From positions 45,225 through 77,224 of the forward strand of contig CAUQEW010000011.1 of NCBI GenBank assembly GCA_963517115.1: a DNA stretch of 32,000 bases, written 5' to 3'. Position 1 is the first letter of the stretch, and each line of letters opens with the position of its first letter. This DNA is from an uncultured Lachnospiraceae bacterium (GTDB taxonomy: Bacteria; Bacillota; Clostridia; Lachnospirales; Lachnospiraceae). The notes beneath the pieces were generated by a model that ran no database searches, was not told where the DNA came from, and saw nothing but the letters and a program-made list of their open reading frames with translations. Shown in pieces: positions 6,535 through 30,181 of this stretch. A program made the position numbers and the translations under genes.

Positions 6535-6580
6535 CTTAAATTAAAAAATTAGACGGTCTTAAATTAAAAAATTAGACGGT
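6535..6580. repeat. Perfect 23-bp tandem duplication
   Basis: CTTAAATTAAAAAATTAGACGGT occurs twice back to back (6535-6557 and 6558-6580). It lies just upstream of the licT -35 and downstream of the comEC stop. Confidence 0.95.
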
Positions 6581-6601
6581 CAAACTATAAAAATGGTTCC
6601 T

Positions 6602-9061
6602 TTAATCTTCTTGATCTAAATACTTTTTTATTTTCATTTGTTTTCCATCTGTTTCAATCATAATTGCTCCACATTCCTTTGTAATTAAAACATCACTTTC
6701 TATTTCTTCTAACCGATCTAATAATTCCACATGAGGATGTCCATAACTATTCCCTTTTCCACAAGAGATTACTGATAATTCAGGTTTCACAAGTTCTAAA
6801 AAAGTATTAGACGTTGAATATTTGGATCCATGATGCGCTACCTTTAATATATCATAGTCTACTGCTATTTTCATTAAATTATCTGATTTATCTAGACTTT
6901 TTCGTTCTAATTCATTCATTACCAATTCTTCACCATCTGCTTCTAAATCACCTGTAAGTAAAAGATCAAATTGATCATAACTAACACTTAGAACTGTTGA
7001 ATAAGCATTTCTTGAAGTCGTATTATAGTTATGATTAGGGTGTATACAGGTAATAGTTACTTCACCGTCCTGTATGATATCTCCTTTTTCCATAAATAAA
7101 ACCTCAATTCCTTTCGATTGAGCTAATGTGACTAATTCCATATAAGAGTCATCTTTTAGAGAACAATTAGGAAGGATTAAATGTTGGATTACAACAATAC
7201 CACTATATACTTTACTAATAAGACTATTATCTTCCATTCCTTCAATCAATTCCTTTAATCCTGAGATATGATCGGCATCCGTATGAGTCACAATCGCATA
7301 ATCCAGTTCCCATATTCCGCTAGCTTTTAAAAAAGGTAAAATCCTATATAACCCTACTTTTTTTACATCAGAACTTCCTCCATCTATCAAGTAGTTAGTC
7401 CCATTTGGTGTTTCCATAAATATTCCATCGCCTTGACCTACATCTAAAAATGTTACTTTGTAATTGTCATTTTTTGATCTTGCTAAAACAATAATTAAGA
7501 ATGATAGTAGTAATATACTTGCCTTTCGTTTTATACCGTTGTTTATAACAACAAAAAGTAAAACAATAAAATAGTATGTGAAAATAATGAGTAAACTAGG
7601 TTTTCCTGTCAGTAAAGTTTTTCCCGGCAATCCAGATGTTATGCGACAAATAAATTCATAGAAATTAAGGATATAATGAACACACCCTATAGTAAAAATA
7701 CTAAAAGGCAAAAAAATACAACCTAATATACCTGCAATAATAGCCATTAAAACGATGAGGGATGACAAAGGCAAAATTATCATATTTATAATTAAAGAAT
7801 AAACCGGGAATTCATAAAAAAAGTATAAAATGATTGGAAAGGTCATAATTTGTATACTAATGCTTAAACACAGTCCTTCTAATATCTTATTCTTTATTGG
7901 AATCATATAGACTATTACTGGATTGATAAGCGCAATACCAAGCATTGCACCAAAAGATAGTAAAAATCCAGCATTATAAATTTGCATCGGGGATTGAATT
8001 AAAATGATTAAAGCACTTAAGGAAGTTGCCGAAAGTAAATCATAGGTCCTTCCTATCACTCCGGCAATCATAAGAAGAATAAGCATGACAACTGCTCGAT
8101 TGGTCGAAACGCTAAAATTAGTTAAAACACCATAAGAAAATATTAGACAGATGGATATTACAGTAGCCAGTAAAATTGGAATTCTAACTTTACGTAATAA
8201 TAAATATAACGTCATTCCTAAAAGCGATACGTTGAGTCCCGATATAGAAAGTATATGGGATATCCCGCTTTCCTGATACAATTTTTTCATTTCATCATCT
8301 AGAAGTGACATTTCGCCTAATATCATCGCTGACATAATACCAGCTTCCTTCATTGGCAGAATCTCATGATAAATACCAACAAATTTTTTCTTGATAGAAT
8401 AAAGCAACTGATGAAATCTTGAGTAATTTGCATTCACAATAGTAATTTGTTCCGCATTTATCTTATAATCAATCTTACGCATTTTATTGTATTGATATTC
8501 GTTGAATTGCCCTGAATTAGTGGCCATTTGAAATTTTAAGATTTGTCCTGAGATAGACAAGATATTACCGATTTTAAATGATTCTTCCGAAGTACTATAG
8601 ACTGTTATCTTATCACTCGAAAAACTTAGTGATTCATATTCGTTTTCTTCTTGCGTCGATTGCAATATTAATTCCTGATTATTTGACTTACCAGCTAATG
8701 TTATCTTATTATTCTTTAAAGTAAGTAATGTATATAGTTCCTTTTCCTCTATCATTTCCAACTGACCTATAACGGTTCCACTGATTTTATCATCAAAAAC
8801 AGTATCCATACTTGCTGGTTCCATTTGTTGATTCATAAAAAAATATCCTAACATCCATAAAAAAGGTAAACCCAACAGAAAACCAAAATGTATTAACTTA
8901 ATCTTCCCCCTACTCCAAAGAACCCAGATCCATATAACAATCCCTGTCATCATTACGCAAGCTATAATAACCACAAACCAAACTCTCCCCTTATAAACCC
9001 CCATCCCAGCCACATAAGCCGCCAGTAACCACACAAGTGGTCTCCTAATCCCCAAAAGCAC
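6602..9061 (-). CDS. comEC: DNA internalization competence protein ComEC/Rec2
   Basis: The 819-aa protein has an N-terminal TM/OB region, a polytopic competence domain, and a C-terminal metallo-beta-lactamase domain (VTHTDADHISG ... KVAHHGS). The annotated start is a GTG at 9061; a TTG at 9055 is an alternative. Confidence 0.9.
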   Translation of the reverse strand: MLLGIRRPLVWLLAAYVAGMGVYKGRVWFVVIIACVMMTGIVIWIWVLWSRGKIKLIHFGFLLGLPFLWMLGYFFMNQQMEPASMDTVFDDKISGTVIGQLEMIEEKELYTLLTLKNNKITLAGKSNNQELILQSTQEENEYESLSFSSDKITVYSTSEESFKIGNILSISGQILKFQMATNSGQFNEYQYNKMRKIDYKINAEQITIVNANYSRFHQLLYSIKKKFVGIYHEILPMKEAGIMSAMILGEMSLLDDEMKKLYQESGISHILSISGLNVSLLGMTLYLLLRKVRIPILLATVISICLIFSYGVLTNFSVSTNRAVVMLILLMIAGVIGRTYDLLSATSLSALIILIQSPMQIYNAGFLLSFGAMLGIALINPVIVYMIPIKNKILEGLCLSISIQIMTFPIILYFFYEFPVYSLIINMIILPLSSLIVLMAIIAGILGCIFLPFSIFTIGCVHYILNFYEFICRITSGLPGKTLLTGKPSLLIIFTYYFIVLLFVVINNGIKRKASILLLSFLIIVLARSKNDNYKVTFLDVGQGDGIFMETPNGTNYLIDGGSSDVKKVGLYRILPFLKASGIWELDYAIVTHTDADHISGLKELIEGMEDNSLISKVYSGIVVIQHLILPNCSLKDDSYMELVTLAQSKGIEVLFMEKGDIIQDGEVTITCIHPNHNYNTTSRNAYSTVLSVSYDQFDLLLTGDLEADGEELVMNELERKSLDKSDNLMKIAVDYDILKVAHHGSKYSTSNTFLELVKPELSVISCGKGNSYGHPHVELLDRLEEIESDVLITKECGAIMIETDGKQMKIKKYLDQED

Positions 9062-9100
9062 GTCCCCCTTCTAATTAAAGTTTCTATACTACTCGACTCC

Positions 9101-9196
9101 CTTTATCTAATCAATGACCTTTATCTAATCAATGACCTTTATCTAATCAATGACCTTTGTCTAATCAACGACCTTTATCTAATTAACGACCTTTAG
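9101..9196. repeat. 18-bp tandem repeat, 5 units plus a partial sixth
   Basis: Units start at 9101, 9119, 9137, 9155, 9173 and 9191. The consensus is CTTTATCTAATCAATGAC, and the distal units carry point changes (CTTTGTCTAATCAACGAC, CTTTATCTAATTAACGAC). Confidence 0.95.
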
Positions 9197-9256
9197 AAAT
9201 GATAAAAAATAATAACTAATATTTTTATTTTTTTATATTTATTAATCAAAAAACGA

Positions 9257-9522
9257 GACCACCGAAAAAGTCTATCTAAAACTTCATTGATTTGCCCGAT
9301 CGGTGACAGCATACCAATATGTTTTTTGCGTAAACCGGCCGATGGAGACTTCTATGTTTTGTTAAGACTCTATTTGAAAATGTAAGCCGCCGCTTACATT
9401 TTCAAATATCTCAGAGGCTTATAAAAAACATGTCTCCTGAGGGTAAGGTAGCAAAAAATATATTGGTATACTGCCACCAATCGGGCAAATCCCAAAAATT
9501 AACTAAGACTTTTCCAGTGGTC
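9257..9522. repeat. Family B long-foldback element, copy B1 (266 bp)
   Basis: Four stem pairings define the fold:
- GACCACCGAAAAAGTCTATCTAA (9257-) pairs with TTAACTAAGACTTTTCCAGTGGTC (-9522).
- GATTTGCCCGATCGGTGACAGCATACCAATATGTTTTTTGC (9289-9329) pairs with 9451-9491.
- GGAGAC..TATGTTTT pairs with AAAACATGTCTCC.
- TATTTGAAAATGTAAGC pairs with GCTTACATTTTCAAATA around the apex at about 9389. Confidence 0.9.
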
Positions 9523-9536
9523 GTATTCTTTCATTA

Positions 9537-10493
9537 TCACTTGCTTCCTTCAACCAATTCCAGATTTCTTTCAAAAAATCCATCAAAAGTAATACCATCT
9601 CTGTAATTCTTTCTAGTAGCACCATCAATTGTAAATTGAACCTTATTAATAGTAGAAAGCTCCACTAAAGAATTAACAACGGAATAAATAATTACTTCGT
9701 CTTTTATATCAGTCATTTGATCAAGTAATTTTTCATTGAAATCAACATAGCAAATTCCATCTTTCGTTGAGACTTTAATCAATTCCGTTCCCTCTGGTAA
9801 TGTTTTAATCATATTTTCCTCAATAGGGCCTGAAATTAATCGTTCAATTATCAATTGTTCTATGGAAAAATTACCGTCATAAGTAATTTTTAAATTAGAA
9901 CCCACCAACGCTGTTCCTTTTTTATTGGAATAATATACTGTAACAAAGACATCTTCTGCATTAGTATTATCTATAAAATCTTCCGAAACCATTAACCCAA
10001 CCGGTTTTTCATTAAAACCCTTTAGTGGCTGTTCACTTACATAAAACTCAATTGAATCCACACCCTCAATTTGACATAGCGTTTTCACTATAGTTGCTCT
10101 GCATAAAACTTCAGAGATTCCAGATAAATTATTATAATCAGAATTAAAATAAATACTTAATCTCCCAGCTTCATTAAAATCATATTTTTCAACAACTAGA
10201 CTGTCTGGTTTTGCCTTCTTTAGAGAAATATCACTTGGATCTTCACTCAATGCCTTTAAATATTCTTCCACTAATTCTTCTGGTGTAGTACCTACCGGAT
10301 TATAATCTTCACCTACAATTTTAGTTTCATTCGTATCAACATAATATACCTGAGTGATAGATTTATCTGTTTCAACCTGTTTGGAATCCTTGTGATCTAT
10401 GCTGCAACCAGTAAATAAAATTGTCGTTAAAAGAACGATGCCCATAGAAAACACCTTGATTCTACTTGTTTTATAACTATCAAATCTTTTCAT
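9537..10493 (-). CDS. Lipoprotein with GerMN-like (GerM family) domains
   Basis: It has a signal peptide with a lipobox (LFTGCS). Two repeats of the GerM-like pattern are present, for example LISGPIEENMIKTLPEGTELIKVSTKDGICYVDFNEKL. Confidence 0.7.
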   Translation of the reverse strand: MKRFDSYKTSRIKVFSMGIVLLTTILFTGCSIDHKDSKQVETDKSITQVYYVDTNETKIVGEDYNPVGTTPEELVEEYLKALSEDPSDISLKKAKPDSLVVEKYDFNEAGRLSIYFNSDYNNLSGISEVLCRATIVKTLCQIEGVDSIEFYVSEQPLKGFNEKPVGLMVSEDFIDNTNAEDVFVTVYYSNKKGTALVGSNLKITYDGNFSIEQLIIERLISGPIEENMIKTLPEGTELIKVSTKDGICYVDFNEKLLDQMTDIKDEVIIYSVVNSLVELSTINKVQFTIDGATRKNYRDGITFDGFFERNLELVEGSK

Positions 10494-10533: not shown

Positions 10534-11976
10534 TTAAGCTATATAATTAATAGGTATCCGAACTGTAAATGTGGTTCCTTCGTTTTCCTTACTATAAACT
10601 TTTATTGCACCCTTATGCATATGAATAGCATTTTTTGTAATTGATAACCCAAGTCCTGTACCACCTGTACTTCTCGAACGTGCTTTATCAACACGATAAA
10701 AGCGGTCAAAAATAAAGTCTTGTGCTTCTTCAGGAATGCCTATTCCAGAATCTGACACTTTTACGTAGAAATACTTATGATCTGCATTGAGTGATACTCG
10801 AACCCAGCCGTCTTCTATGTTATATTTAATAGCATTTTCAATTAAATTAGAGATTGCTAATGAAAGTTTAACCTCGTCTATCTCCGCTACAACTGGTCGA
10901 AAACTTTCAAAAACTAATTCAATATTTCGTTTCTTTGCTATTGGTCTTAATCGTTTCAGTACCTGTTCCAATAAATCATTGATTTTAATGGCAGAAATAT
11001 TCATATCACTTGCTGTCTTATCTAACTTCACTAAGGATAAAAGATCATTAATAATTTTATTTTCACGCTCAATTTCATCAGCAATATCCACTAAGAATTC
11101 CCGATACAATTCAGGTGCTACATTCTCCTGCATTAATAAAGAATCTGCTAATACTTTTACCGAAGTTAAGGGCGTTTTTAACTCGTGAGAGACATTAGAA
11201 ACGAATTCCTGTCTTGATCTTTCCAGATTCTTCATTCGAAGAAGCATTTGATTTAAAGAATTTGAGATTTGCTTAATCTCATAAAATCCATCAATGGTAA
11301 CCTCTTCATCCATATAGCCTTCAGTCAGGTGACCGACTGCATTCTTCAGGTTTATTAAAGGTTTTGTTAATATTCCAGAAAAGAAAAATGAAATTACTAA
11401 AATTATGATAGCAGTAGTCATAAATAAAACAGATGCTTTCTGGGATAATATTTCAGATATAGTAACGATATTCTTAGTAGAAAAGTTCATAACAATAACA
11501 CCCATAATTTCTTTAGTGGTATTATGTGTGATTGGTATAGACATCTCTATATAATTGTGCGGTTTATTCTGAAAAATACTATTCGTTCCACGAAGACAAT
11601 TAATGACCTTTTCAGATATTAAAGTTTTGCCATCTTCAATCCCATAGGTATCATTGAGAATATTTAGATGGTTGTCTACAACAAGTATTCTTCCATCAAA
11701 AATACTAGCAATCCGAGTGAGCTCCGTATCAACTTCAGTAACGGTCGGATCTGTTACGTACCCTGAAGATAGCATAAGGTTTACTAACGAATTGCCTTGA
11801 CTTTGTAATTCACTCTTTATCTGTTCATTCGCCTTACTATTATACGTATTAATCATTACCCCTGTAAATATTAGTACAGGAATGATGCCAATTAAGAAGA
11901 GTACTATTACTTCATACACTCTTATACTTTTTAAAAACCAGAATTTAGATTTAATCTTGGAAAAAATAGCCAACAC
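10534..11976 (-). CDS. Sensor histidine kinase (2 TM, HAMP, HisKA, HATPase_c)
   Basis: It has the H-box SHELKTPLTS, the N-box NLIENAIKYN, and the G-boxes DSGIGIP and GGTGLGLSI. The start is uncertain. The track ATG at 12051 overlaps the regulator gene by 100 nt, so I prefer the GTG at 11976 or the TTG at 11973, which overlap the regulator stop by about 25 nt. Confidence 0.8.
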   Translation of the reverse strand: MLAIFSKIKSKFWFLKSIRVYEVIVLFLIGIIPVLIFTGVMINTYNSKANEQIKSELQSQGNSLVNLMLSSGYVTDPTVTEVDTELTRIASIFDGRILVVDNHLNILNDTYGIEDGKTLISEKVINCLRGTNSIFQNKPHNYIEMSIPITHNTTKEIMGVIVMNFSTKNIVTISEILSQKASVLFMTTAIIILVISFFFSGILTKPLINLKNAVGHLTEGYMDEEVTIDGFYEIKQISNSLNQMLLRMKNLERSRQEFVSNVSHELKTPLTSVKVLADSLLMQENVAPELYREFLVDIADEIERENKIINDLLSLVKLDKTASDMNISAIKINDLLEQVLKRLRPIAKKRNIELVFESFRPVVAEIDEVKLSLAISNLIENAIKYNIEDGWVRVSLNADHKYFYVKVSDSGIGIPEEAQDFIFDRFYRVDKARSRSTGGTGLGLSITKNAIHMHKGAIKVYSKENEGTTFTVRIPINYIA

Positions 11977-12701: not shown

Positions 12702-13409
12702 TTAGTTAACTGTTAACATATCGCAAATCTTATTAAAAACAGAATCTTTTATTCCGTCAATATTTTTAATCTCTTCTATCGTCTTAAAACCATCATTATC
12801 TTGTCTGTATGTTATAATACTTTTTGCTTTCGATTCACCAATACCAGTTAAGGTCATTAACTCTTCCATATTTGCTGCATTAATATTTACTTTTACAGGT
12901 TTCTCAATATCACTATCCTTCACAGAAAAATCAGAGGGAGTCATGTCTTCTACCTCTTCCTTGGTAGGAATATAGATTTGTTGACCATCCTCCACCAAAG
13001 CAGCTTGGTTTACAAAATCACCCGCCGCATCATCTGTTAAGCCACCCGCTAATTTAATTATATCAAACAAACGAGAATCCTTTTCGACTTCATAAACATT
13101 CGGTTCTTTGACAGCTCCACAAATATGAATATAAATTAACTCAACACGAATAACCTCAGTATCCTCTTGCGGTACTATTTCATTCTCTTGTATAACTTTT
13201 GTATCATCTTGTATTGCTTTTGTATCATCTTGTATTACTTTTGTATTTTCATCTTTTTCTTGTACATTCGTTTGTGCAAAGTTGGTATCTTGATTTTGTA
13301 AAACTACCTGTGCCTCTTGTATACCAGCACTTCTACAGCTATATAAGATTCCGGCAAGCACGATAAACATTATTGTTAATCCTGTTGTTATCCATTTTTT
13401 ATTCTTCAT
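12702..13409 (-). CDS. comEA: ComEA-family DNA receptor (TM anchor, SLBB-like domain, helix-hairpin-helix)
   Basis: The C-terminus carries INAANMEELMTLTGIGESKAKSIITYR...IKNIDGIKDSVFNKI (tandem HhH). The start is at MKNKKW (13409), which has an AAAGGA RBS. An internal heptad repeat TKVIQDD is present. Confidence 0.85.
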   Translation of the reverse strand: MKNKKWITTGLTIMFIVLAGILYSCRSAGIQEAQVVLQNQDTNFAQTNVQEKDENTKVIQDDTKAIQDDTKVIQENEIVPQEDTEVIRVELIYIHICGAVKEPNVYEVEKDSRLFDIIKLAGGLTDDAAGDFVNQAALVEDGQQIYIPTKEEVEDMTPSDFSVKDSDIEKPVKVNINAANMEELMTLTGIGESKAKSIITYRQDNDGFKTIEEIKNIDGIKDSVFNKICDMLTVN

Positions 13410-14158: not shown

Positions 14159-14218
14159 CTAAAAAATAATCTATAACATTAGGAGTACACATTAAGTACT
14201 CCTAACGTTATAGATTAT
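14159..14218 (-). terminator. Strong rho-independent terminator of the arg operon transcript
   Basis: A 23-bp stem forms between ATAATCTATAACATTAGGAGTAC (14166-14188) and GTACTCCTAACGTTATAGATTAT (14196-14218). Its one mismatch is T:G on the minus strand, and a minus-strand T-run follows it (the plus-strand A-run at 14160-14166). Confidence 0.8.
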
Positions 14219-14260
14219 CCCAGTGAAAAGCCTTATTACAAAATAATATAATTTATTATT

Positions 14261-14490
14261 GGGTGGATGTCAAAAGCCCTTCATAACAGGAATTATGAAT
14301 AGCGGTGTATATATAATCATTTTGTCGTCGAACTAGTTCGAATGAGATCGGCTGACAAGGCTGCTTATGTCTGACTATGAGACTAATCTTTGAGGCTCTA
14401 CAAAAGACATGCCGCAGGAAGGAAAGGTAGACAAAATGATTATATATACACCGCTATTCATTCCACAGTCAAAATTGAGCTTTGACACCC
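14261..14490. repeat. Family B long-foldback element, copy B2 (230 bp)
   Basis: There is a perfect 30-bp stem between GAATAGCGGTGTATATATAATCATTTTGTC (14297-14326) and 14430-14459. The outer pairing is GGGTG..TGTCAAA (14261-) with TTTGACACCC (-14490). The interior is homologous to B1, sharing CGGCYGA, TATGTYT, GAGGCT, AAAGACATG and AAGGTAG. Confidence 0.9.
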
Positions 14491-21546: not shown

Positions 21547-21835
21547 AGATTTGGTGGTTGCCTGGCGCTCTGGTACTTTAAATTCTAATTAAGTCTTTGA
21601 TAACCGGTGGGGCTGCAGGAATATAATAAAAGAGTTTTTCCATTGCTACGACACTTTCTCCTAATAATCCGCGTGGATAGTACAGCAAATTCGGCTGTTC
21701 TCTCCACGCGGATTATTAGGAGGAAGAGTCTCTGCAAAGGAAAAACTTTTTTTTATTATATTCCTGCGGCTCCACCGGTTACTATAGGTTATTGAAGAAT
21801 TTAAAGTACCAGAGCACCAGGCGACCACCAAATCT
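21547..21835. repeat. Family A long-foldback element, copy A1 (289 bp), inverted polarity relative to A2 and A3
   Basis: A 39-bp basal stem (21547-21585 with 21797-21835) has one T:G and one C:A. Further stems pair 21602-21641 with 21739-21780 and 21650-21677 with 21703-21730, and an apical hairpin forms at ACAGC/GCTGT (21682-21698). The reverse complement aligns far better to A3 than the forward sequence does, for example AGAAAGTGTCGTAGCAATGGAAAAACTCT. Confidence 0.9.
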
Positions 21836-22252: not shown

Positions 22253-22744
22253 ATGATTTCGCAAGAAAAATTAATGAAAGCTCTAATAAAAGGAAAATAT
22301 GAATCCTATATTAAACAAAGCTCTACATACAATCCATATTCAAAATCGGTATTATATGATTGGGAATTCAAACTACCTATAGATGATTTATTATACATCG
22401 ATTATTTTAGGGGTTTTAATCCTTATAGTGGCGCCGAATATGTATATGAAAAAGATAATAATATACCTATTTGGTCCTGCGACTATGTGGGTTATGTAAA
22501 ACAAGATATGGATGTATCTGCAGAAAATATTTATAATTTTCTAAAGGAATCAAGGGGAAATCATTTATTACATTGTAATAATAAACTATTTTCTAATTAT
22601 AAATATGAAAACAACATTTTTCAGTATGAAACATATTTTCAAGGAGATATAACATCATTATTACAAATAGAAAATTTCTATTATAATAACTTACTAATAG
22701 CACAGCAAATATCATCAGGAAGGTTAAAACAATCCACTGATTAA
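22253..22744 (+). CDS. Hypothetical protein, possibly DUF5680-like
   Basis: The 163-aa ORF has a strong RBS (AAAGGAGGG). The pattern YxDxFxGxNPYSGxE.V.......PIWxxxYxGYV......IYNFLK recalls DUF5680 proteins from memory, but this is not verified. Confidence 0.6.
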   Translation: MISQEKLMKALIKGKYESYIKQSSTYNPYSKSVLYDWEFKLPIDDLLYIDYFRGFNPYSGAEYVYEKDNNIPIWSCDYVGYVKQDMDVSAENIYNFLKESRGNHLLHCNNKLFSNYKYENNIFQYETYFQGDITSLLQIENFYYNNLLIAQQISSGRLKQSTD

Positions 22745-22804
22745 TATTTTATTATTAAAAGAAACCATCCGATCTTTTTCTTTTAATAAGTCCCCACCCA
22801 CAAA

Positions 22805-23092
22805 GATTTGGCGGAGCTTGGATCGTCGGACGCTATAAATTCCATCGAATACCTATGTCAACAGGAGAATTTGCAGGTATATATTAATAACGAATTTTTC
22901 GTTTGCGGAGACACTTTCTACTAATAGTACACTTGGAGCGGACAGTCGTTTTTACTGTCCTCTCCAAGCGTACTATTAGTAGAAAGTGTCATAGCAACAG
23001 AAAAATCCGATTAATATATACCTGCAAAGCCTCCTGTTGTCGAATGTCTACCTGGAATTTATAGCGGACGACGATCCAAGCTCCGCCAAATC
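22805..23092. repeat. Family A long-foldback element, copy A2 (288 bp)
   Basis: The 39-bp basal stem GATTTGGCGGAGCTTGGATCGTCGGACGCTATAAATTCC (22805-22843) pairs with 23054-23092, with a tandem G:A/A:G. A perfect 19-bp stem pairs 22870-22888 with 23010-23028. A 37-bp distal stem pairs 22910-22946 with 22954-22990 and has two mismatches. Confidence 0.9.
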
Positions 23093-23209
23093 CCTACCCA
23101 CACTAGATTAGAATTTGATTAAGCATTTATTTATCTATTTATTAATTTTAGAATCTATAATATAATAGGGTTAGCATTTCATTATATTATTCTTGAAAGG
23201 AGAAATAAC

Positions 23210-29816: not shown

Positions 29817-29889
29817 ATCTGAGATTTAGTATAAGATTTTGTAAGAATATACTATTCCTTTTCTTTATAATATAGTTTAAACCCACAAA

Positions 29890-30170
29890 GATTTGGCGGA
29901 GCCTGGGGTCGTACACTATAAATTCTATCGATAACTCACTTCTACAGGAGGCTTCGCAGGTACATATTAATAAAGAGTTTTTCCCTTGCGGCGACACTTT
30001 CTTTTGATTGTACGATTAGAGAGGACAGTCTTTATGTCCTATCAAAGCGCACAATCAAAAGAAAGTGTCAGAGCAATGGAAAAACTCTATTAATATATAC
30101 CTGCGAAACCTCCTGTTGTAGAAAACCTAAATTAGAATTTATAGTGTACGACACCAGGCTCCGCCAAATC
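29890..30170. repeat. Family A long-foldback element, copy A3 (281-bp hairpin; conserved flanks span about 29876-30181)
   Basis: A 37-bp basal stem (29890-29926 with 30134-30170) has one mismatch. Further stems pair 29952-29972 with 30088-30108 and 29993-30026 with 30036-30069. The apex is GGACAGTCTTTATGTCC. Confidence 0.9.
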
Positions 30171-30181
30171 TCTACATTAAA

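Follow-up and report, generated by a model that had tools for sequence, protein, structure and literature searches.

The window analyzed in this study, a stretch of 32,000 nt, carries ordinary housekeeping genes and originates from the chromosome of an Anaerocolumna-like bacterium of the family Lachnospiraceae. The GerM protein encoded in it has its best outside matches, with 60–70% identity, in Anaerocolumna species and MAGs. A conserved gene cluster of the order argJ-argB-argD-ydcZ-comEA-RR-HK-gerM-comEC is present. A 266-nt foldback, termed B1, was found downstream of gerM, and a second full copy of the same family, B2, occupies the argD/ydcZ spacer (Table 1). As stated in the initial annotation, B1 lies 14 nt from the gerM stop codon and 195 nt from the longest comEC ORF. 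Two further short repeats were observed in the window, a perfect 23-nt tandem repeat just downstream of comEC (6535-6593) and a 21-nt repeat with 2.9 copies inside the comEA-like ORF (13186-13246).

Table 1. Features of the B1 locus and related elements. Positions refer to the window, except for the last row; 5′ and 3′ are given in RNA sense.
Feature	Position	Strand	Remarks
B1, whole foldback	9257-9522	minus	266 nt; minus strand is sense; from RNA folds and inverted repeats
gerM-like ORF	9537-10493	minus	upstream neighbor of B1
comEC, longest ORF	6602-9061	minus	downstream neighbor of B1
Outer helix of B1, 5′ strand	9506-9522	minus	from MFE structures
Outer helix of B1, 3′ strand	9257-9273	minus	from MFE structures; pairs with 9506-9522
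Inner stem of B1, 5′ arm	9451-9491	minus	contains GGGAUUUGCCCG, a word common to family A
Inner stem of B1, 3′ arm	9289-9329	minus	pairs with 9451-9491; outer part unique to B1
Conserved core of B1	9312-9469	minus	central 158 nt; nhmmer with profile of non-window copies, E = 2.7e-17
5′ internal loop	9439-9452	minus	RNA sense GCUACCUUACCCUC; family consensus CUACCUUNCCNUC
3′ internal loop	9335-9343	minus	RNA sense AUCGGCCGG; family consensus UCNGCCGNU
Apical 16-bp hairpin	9372-9407	minus	variable position within family B
U6 tract	9248-9253	minus	3 nt past the foldback base; B1 only among family members
B2, second full family B copy	14255-14490	minus	between argD stop codon and terminator at 14166-14218
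B3 fragment	338-442	plus	3′ half of a copy resembling B2; antisense to neighboring genes
A1, family A	21547-21835	plus
A2, family A	22804-23093	minus
A3, family A	29889-30171	minus
Family A copies in L003	4275-4556, 6040-6320		two copies

The anatomy and the coordinates given for B1 before hold, and B1 is a real hairpin. Folded as RNA, its minus strand reaches a minimum free energy of -137 kcal/mol (z = -16.3) and its plus strand one of -119.1 kcal/mol (z = -14.0), and in both cases none of 200 shuffled sequences folded as well. The inverted-repeat search returned two 41-nt arms with 90% complementarity for the inner stem. The two unpaired segments that had been noted as conserved, CCGGCCGAT at 9335-9343 and GAGGGTAAGGTAGC at 9439-9452, are similar in B2 and recur in other genomes. 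About 55 nt outermost on each side of B1, including the word GATTTG, do not align to any other copy.

B1 and B2 belong to one family, as had been proposed, which is referred to as family B. Using a pattern derived from the 5′ internal loop, true copies were identified in the cultured strain [Clostridium] fimetarium DSM 9179 (L126), in a Clostridiales MAG (L127) and in four metagenome contigs (L130, L131, L135, and L136). Two copies were found at syntenic loci of relatives. The first one, in L137 (9660-9905), is located between a histidine kinase gene and gerM, and the second one, in L146 (19104-19369), belongs to an organism also carrying elements of a different family, family A, which is described below. 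Overall, the sources of the external copies are [Clostridium] fimetarium, MAGs of Lachnospiraceae, and metagenomes. Matches of the 5′-loop pattern in L128, L129, and L132–L134 are due to chance. Scans of viral contigs with two motifs gave chance matches only, the loci L005–L124 originating from a too loose 16-base pattern and L125 being coding sequence.

A profile built from the non-window copies only found three sites in the window, namely the B1 core, B2 (E = 2.1e-32 over 14269-14484) and the B3 fragment (E = 6e-4), which is 89% complementary to 14307-14362. The family B covariance model R1 scored 119.6 bits on B1 (9314-9466) and 75.7 bits on B2. B1 and B2 have the core alone in common. Furthermore, B1 carries the loops of the family, with CUACCUUACCCUC and AUCGGCCGG at the fixed places of CUACCUUNCCNUC and UCNGCCGNU in the rod. 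The outer helix of B1 resembles that of L127 when compared by eye. An apical hairpin with other sequences is present in L126, L127, L130, and L135 and is absent from B2 and L131.

Searches of the whole window against Rfam 15 at gathering thresholds gave zero matches. With relaxed E-values, B1, B2, two family A elements (A1 and A2) and three outside loci yielded generic miRNA-hairpin matches only, which lie far below threshold. Nothing was matched in BLAST searches against plasmids and phages, and the literature searched contained no description of elements of family A or family B. Family B, which is not catalogued, is small and consists of folded elements with a rod shape. It occurs in gut and soil bacteria similar to Anaerocolumna and in Lachnospiraceae similar to [Clostridium] fimetarium.

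Members of family B have a size of approximately 160–290 nt, of which about 150 nt form the conserved core. According to the covariance-model alignment, the rod is composed of a closing stem, the 5′ loop CUACCUUNCCNUC, a helix in which GCAUGUUUUU is paired to AAAACAUA..GC, the segment GCCUCA.AGAU, the optional apical hairpin, the segment UGAGUCU, and the 3′ loop UCNGCCGNU. The 5′ loop is near-invariant in all seven aligned copies, with the variant UGCCUUACCCUC in L137, and it was read directly in L146. In other genomes, conservation within family B is highest in the unpaired segments, which supports the earlier suggestion that they may be recognition loops. The covariance model scored 66–167 bits in sense and only about 25 bits in antisense orientation. 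The element is therefore asymmetric, and the minus strand of B1, to which the initial annotation had pointed, is the sense orientation of the family.

The stems of the rod covary. Of the 49 modelled pairs, 29 have changed on both sides, and 86.6% of the alignment cells are paired, compared with 39–49% (about 42%) when the partners are slid. The observed values were reached by 0 of 500 shuffles; this count is not to be read as a probability, since the sample consists of only eight sequences, several of them closely related, and the model itself was used to fit the alignment.

The copies in L126 and L135 are orthologues, as both are located downstream of the same ptsH-like gene. Their cores are 96% identical and the word GGAAUAUG is identical throughout (100%), while the 20-bp variable stem shows 75% identity per arm with compensated changes. 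For comparison, the two genes upstream are 70–77% identical at third codon positions, and the downstream spacer is 73–81% identical. As the core is far more similar than the third codon positions, purifying selection on the intact element can be deduced for this locus, which indicates that the family B core is maintained and that the stems are kept paired. In [Clostridium] fimetarium the 3′ half of the element is tandemly duplicated (L126, 2617-2740). The orthologous duplicate in L135 (approximately 11280-11440) is heavily decayed, being 73% identical with many gaps, and the intact element beside it is conserved. A further variant was observed between two assemblies of one Lachnospiraceae locus, where L138 (at 9858) lacks 53 nt that are present in L137 (9806-9858), so that the 3′ loop and the 3′ stem arm are lost.

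Some other explanations for the conserved sequence were considered and discarded. Coding by a small ORF does not fit, since frame and sequence differ between the copies on either strand (judged by eye). For GAUGAUGA...CUGA, a motif of the L126-type copies, a K-turn or C/D box was considered as well, but its register clashes with the Watson-Crick helix, and neither B1 nor B2 contains it. Likewise, insertion of the core into the loop of a pre-existing terminator was rejected, because the parts GAAUAUG, AUGAAUA, and GUCAAAAGCC of the enclosing stem recur between copies at different sites.

The copies of family B begin 0–50 nt past a stop codon, and the site differs between genomes. A separate terminator with a long stem follows B2, L126, L131, and L135; such terminators of 20–30 bp are in use in these genomes. 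Given this location ahead of a separate terminator, a transcript of the upstream gene would include the element. Five of the eight independent sites are co-oriented with this gene (B1, B2, the L126 group, L131, and L137). The remaining three are L127 and the B3 fragment, which are antisense, and L146, which has no co-oriented gene upstream. Between one and three copies were seen per genome sample, and the strict motif matched once across the whole genome of [Clostridium] fimetarium. No transposase gene was present at any of the loci examined. Inspection by eye of the flanks of B1, L137 (against the empty site in L143), and the family A copies revealed no direct repeat that would represent a target-site duplication; the element itself is wholly palindromic. 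Downstream of argD, the terminator at 14166-14218 has 23-nt arms with 96% complementarity, and the scan, which counts a maximum of 20 pairs, gives 20 pairs at 14169-14215. A promoter-like sequence TTGACA-17-TATATT with 11 of 12 matches (14273-14245, minus strand) overlaps the outer helix of B2. Together with the terminator it could delimit a very short transcript.

Within the gene cluster the position of the elements varies. In L137 the family B copy follows the histidine kinase gene, and in L003 a family A element follows argD. No family B copy was found in the same gene cluster of L001, L004, L139, L141, and L143. The argD-ydcZ spacer of L141 (5720-5957) contains an unrelated array of approximately 36-nt repeats (ATGTCATTCTGAGCCGCAGGCGAAGAATCTC...) with one inverted copy. 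This spacer therefore collects different repeats depending on the lineage, that is B2 in the window, a family A element in L003, and the array in L141.

The spacer between gerM and comEC has a length of 475 nt in the window and of 23–189 nt in six relatives, none of which carries a family B copy there. Besides B1, the extra DNA comprises an AT-rich stretch and an 18-nt tandem repeat with 5.3 copies, so B1 lies within lineage-specific extra DNA. In relatives gerM and comEC are adjacent, and in the window B1 separates them. The tandem repeat (CCTTTATCTAATCAATGA; 9100-9195, 94% matches) is located between B1 and the comEC start, in spacer DNA missing from the relatives, and could represent binding sites for a regulator. 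An effect of B1 on comEC expression had been suggested before. This is not supported, as unrelated genes precede the family B copies (a ptsH-like gene, argD, the gene of a histidine kinase, and others) and relatives have no such element between gerM and comEC. A dedicated role of B1 in comEC expression is unlikely, and B1 is not regarded as a dedicated comEC regulator. For genome annotation this means that such rods should not be read as gene-specific regulators and that B1 is not specific to comEC.

The mismatches in the stems were analyzed for a strand bias, with the orientation set by the asymmetric motifs. The inner stem of B1 has four mismatches, of which three are G:U on the minus strand (C9301·A9479, A9306·C9474, and C9310·A9470, in plus-strand letters) and one is G:U on the plus strand (G9321·T9459). 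A ratio of about 6:1 in favor of the minus strand had been counted by hand. It is close to the 9 minus-strand versus 2 plus-strand G:U mismatches obtained arm to arm for the whole element, although two of the positions named (9308 and 9312) are off by 2 each. In the five window copies, G:U and A:C mismatches occur in a ratio of 34:10. The seven outside copies show 39:39, and in L127, which is antisense to its neighbors, the ratio is reversed (6:10). The bias is thus confined to this genome, and it cannot serve as the evidence for an RNA that it had been taken for, since it is no property of the family. Family-wide, the excess of G:U over A:C is weak (38:25, p = 0.13; 18:11 for the model pairs alone). 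The bias may reflect mutation linked to transcription (C-to-T) as easily as selection on the RNA.

Family A resembles family B in forming a nearly complete rod with covarying pairs, in being placed after stop codons, and in co-occurring with family B in two genomes. It is an almost fully paired rod of approximately 285–290 nt, in which 57 of 127 pairs show compensatory changes and 91% of the cells are paired, against about 43% when slid. Its conserved motifs, UUUUUCC-UUGCUAC-GACAC and an asymmetric 3′ tail with CCAAAUCU..GGGUU, are different from those of family B. A common origin of the two families had been suggested from shared terminal words. The words GATTTG...CAAATC are indeed literally common to family A and B1, but the similarity does not exceed chance. 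GATTTG falls outside the homologous part of B1, and the other family B copies lack it and do not start with it. When the alignment that the initial annotation had called for was run with nhmmer in both directions over 313 kb, the family A profile found no family B copy and the family B profile no family A copy. Local Smith-Waterman alignments between the families were no better than those of dinucleotide shuffles (p = 0.15–1.0), and the covariance model R1 gave no match on family A. Without any signal from profiles, covariance model or alignments, the common ancestry of families A and B is not supported, which was also the outcome named beforehand as speaking against it.

In the window, A1 (plus strand) and A2 (minus strand) form an inverted pair around a DUF5680 gene (22253-22744). 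The distance between argG and ybjQ is 1676 nt here, and the two genes are adjacent with spacers of 185–312 nt in L146 and L147. Because of this adjacency in two relatives, the A1-DUF5680-A2 segment looks like an inserted, composite-like segment. A Logan contig with about 95% identity to the window (L145, 597-765) contains DUF5680-A2-ybjQ without the central 137 nt of A2 (window 22878-23014); this gap may be a real deletion of the palindrome center or an assembly artefact. The remaining A2 stem of L145 shows two fully compensated pair changes.

REP elements have a role in stabilizing mRNA. REPINs are characterized by REP units of 20–40 nt in inverted pairs, a high copy number, and an associated RAYT gene. 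Their ends are conserved, the hairpin spacer varies with compensating changes, and folding is predicted for single-stranded DNA or mRNA (PMC3116915). Like family B, the REPIN/REP-BIME elements of Proteobacteria are intergenic, often located just downstream of genes, and found in either orientation (PMC3116915), and they form a hairpin in which conserved segments flank a varying but compensated stem, with folding predicted at the level of single-stranded DNA or mRNA. However, they have a length of 35–110 nt compared with 160–290 nt for family B and are present in hundreds of copies, whereas family B seems to be of low copy number. Moreover, the conserved REP arms are palindromic, whereas the conserved parts of family B are asymmetric internal loops, and family B is found in Lachnospiraceae with no RAYT gene known near it.

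The transcribed hairpin repeats and MITEs of the ERIC, Correia, BOX, and bcr1 type have a length of 100–200 nt, form long RNA hairpins in transcripts, some of them with compensatory changes, and affect mRNA stability or processing depending on their orientation. Family B is similar in its predicted long RNA hairpins and compensatory changes. It differs in that terminal inverted repeats together with a target-site duplication were not found, and in a much lower copy number, a longer rod, and strong purifying selection on the orthologous internal loops. These repeats have been reviewed (PMC3184786). MITEs in general are recognized by a large number of near-identical copies per genome and by an autonomous IS to which they are related. 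In family B, the similarity between B1 and B2 is confined to the core, a single strict match of the motif was obtained in [Clostridium] fimetarium, and the loci contain no transposase gene. Large structured ncRNA motifs of bacteria such as raiA, ROOL, GOLLD, and OLE were found by comparative genomics. Family B shares with them conserved loop or junction sequences, covarying helices, and a narrow phylogenetic range, but it forms a simple rod without multi-helix junctions and occurs in several copies at variable sites. Finally, an integron attC site was considered, as attC sites also follow stop codons. These are imperfect palindromes of 57–141 nt with R″/R′ core sites in a cassette array beside an integrase gene. 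The length of B1, its housekeeping neighbors, and the lack of an integrase in the window argue against this assignment.

The explanation which we favor, with slightly less than even confidence, is that B1 is a copy of a dispersed family of structured, selected elements that most likely act as RNA in 3′ UTRs or intercistronic transcripts. Each copy is a rod, in which a long stem of freely drifting but paired sequence surrounds the core of about 150 nt with its two asymmetric conserved loops. Copies have spread to different intergenic sites, typically 0–50 nt past a stop codon and before the terminator, where purifying selection maintains them. Transcription of the upstream gene, which is gerM in the case of B1, would include the element as 3′ UTR or intercistronic sequence. 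In such a transcript, the rod with its high stability could act in a similar way as REP/BIME and ERIC elements, that is as a barrier to 3′-to-5′ decay, as a partial stop, or as a processing site. The structure, the family membership, the covariation, the selection on the core, and the differing sites are established, and transcription, action as RNA, and any effect on gerM or comEC are inferred. The conserved loops would dock a putative partner, either a protein or an RNA. Three observations favor an action as RNA, namely that the element is located behind a stop codon and ahead of a terminator, that its conserved loops are asymmetric, and that purifying selection acts at a locus of a genome in which the strict motif occurs once. 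The orientation counts against it, as only five of the eight independent sites are co-oriented with the upstream gene. The weak family-wide excess of G:U over A:C and the absence from other copies of the U tract that gives B1 the look of a terminator count against it as well. The compensated stems could also stem from arm-to-arm correction of a DNA palindrome, and the deletion variants L138 and L131 show that the DNA is unstable.

A serious rival is a mobile DNA element of the REPIN or MITE kind, which we consider rather unlikely. The hairpin would then form in single-stranded DNA, the loops and subterminal words would be sites for a transposase or recombinase (e.g., a Y1/HUH enzyme encoded elsewhere), and effects on the RNA would be incidental. 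This would account for the different insertion sites within one syntenic cluster, for the occurrence of both orientations, for partial and duplicated copies (the B3 fragment, the half-copy duplication in L126, and the deletion in L138), and for the apparent insertion of the A1-DUF5680-A2 segment between argG and ybjQ, and REPINs too combine conserved ends and a freely varying, compensated spacer with predicted folding in single-stranded DNA or mRNA (PMC3116915). On the other hand, neither a target-site duplication nor a transposase gene was detected at the loci, the copy number looks low, with a single strict match in the [Clostridium] fimetarium genome, and purifying selection on orthologous copies at their locus would be unexpected for a purely selfish insert. 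A free-standing gene for a trans-acting RNA is improbable. Here the rod would be released, e.g., by RNase III, and its pyrimidine-rich loop CUACCUUUCCUUC would either bind a protein or base-pair with targets that are rich in purines and resemble a Shine-Dalgarno sequence. The strong conservation of the loops against the drifting stems, the low copy number, and the resemblance of the loop to an anti-Shine-Dalgarno sequence, as read from its letters, would agree with this, as would the intact copies in L127 and L146, which are not co-oriented with their neighbors and would therefore need a promoter of their own. However, B1, L126, and L137 start 0–14 nt past the stop codon and leave no room for a promoter, the promoter scan found none upstream of B1, no conserved promoter was seen, and apart from the elements themselves no target complementary to the pyrimidine loop was found in the window.

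That B1 is an oversized but ordinary intrinsic terminator of gerM, or a chance palindrome, is hardly credible. The U6 tract 3 nt past the base of its stem and the use of terminators with long stems of 20–30 bp in these genomes would speak for a terminator. In an intrinsic terminator, though, a G+C-rich stem is directly followed by the U tract, and the terminator scan found nothing at B1; the homologous cores elsewhere lack the U tract and, where this can be seen, are followed by a separate terminator. The model of the initial annotation, in which B1 is a family A relative that has diverged and that regulates comEC in cis, is very improbable as well. The 8-mer GGGATTTG shared by B1 and A2, the co-occurrence of both families in two genomes, and the location of B1 upstream of comEC agree with it. 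Against it stand the absence of any signal between the families, the position of the shared word outside the homologous core, the unrelated genes preceding the other family B copies, and the relatives without an element in front of comEC.

Structured elements with covariation are seldom found outside the families of Rfam. Family B is in addition accessible to experiments, since it is present in the cultured strain [Clostridium] fimetarium DSM 9179 and the purifying selection on its loops is measurable (96% identity compared with about 73% at neutral sites). Going further than the favored action as RNA, it is possible, if doubtful, that families B and A are new classes of rod RNAs of approximately 250–290 nt in Lachnospiraceae, which are selected by the host, dock a dedicated partner with their loops, and are able to relocate. 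If so, they would be functional RNAs forming a class that spreads in a way of its own, and more than a selfish repeat. If family B acts as RNA, it would add a class of 3′-UTR and intercistronic elements to the Lachnospiraceae, a group in which RNA biology has received little attention. An action as DNA would make it a REPIN-like system outside the Proteobacteria.
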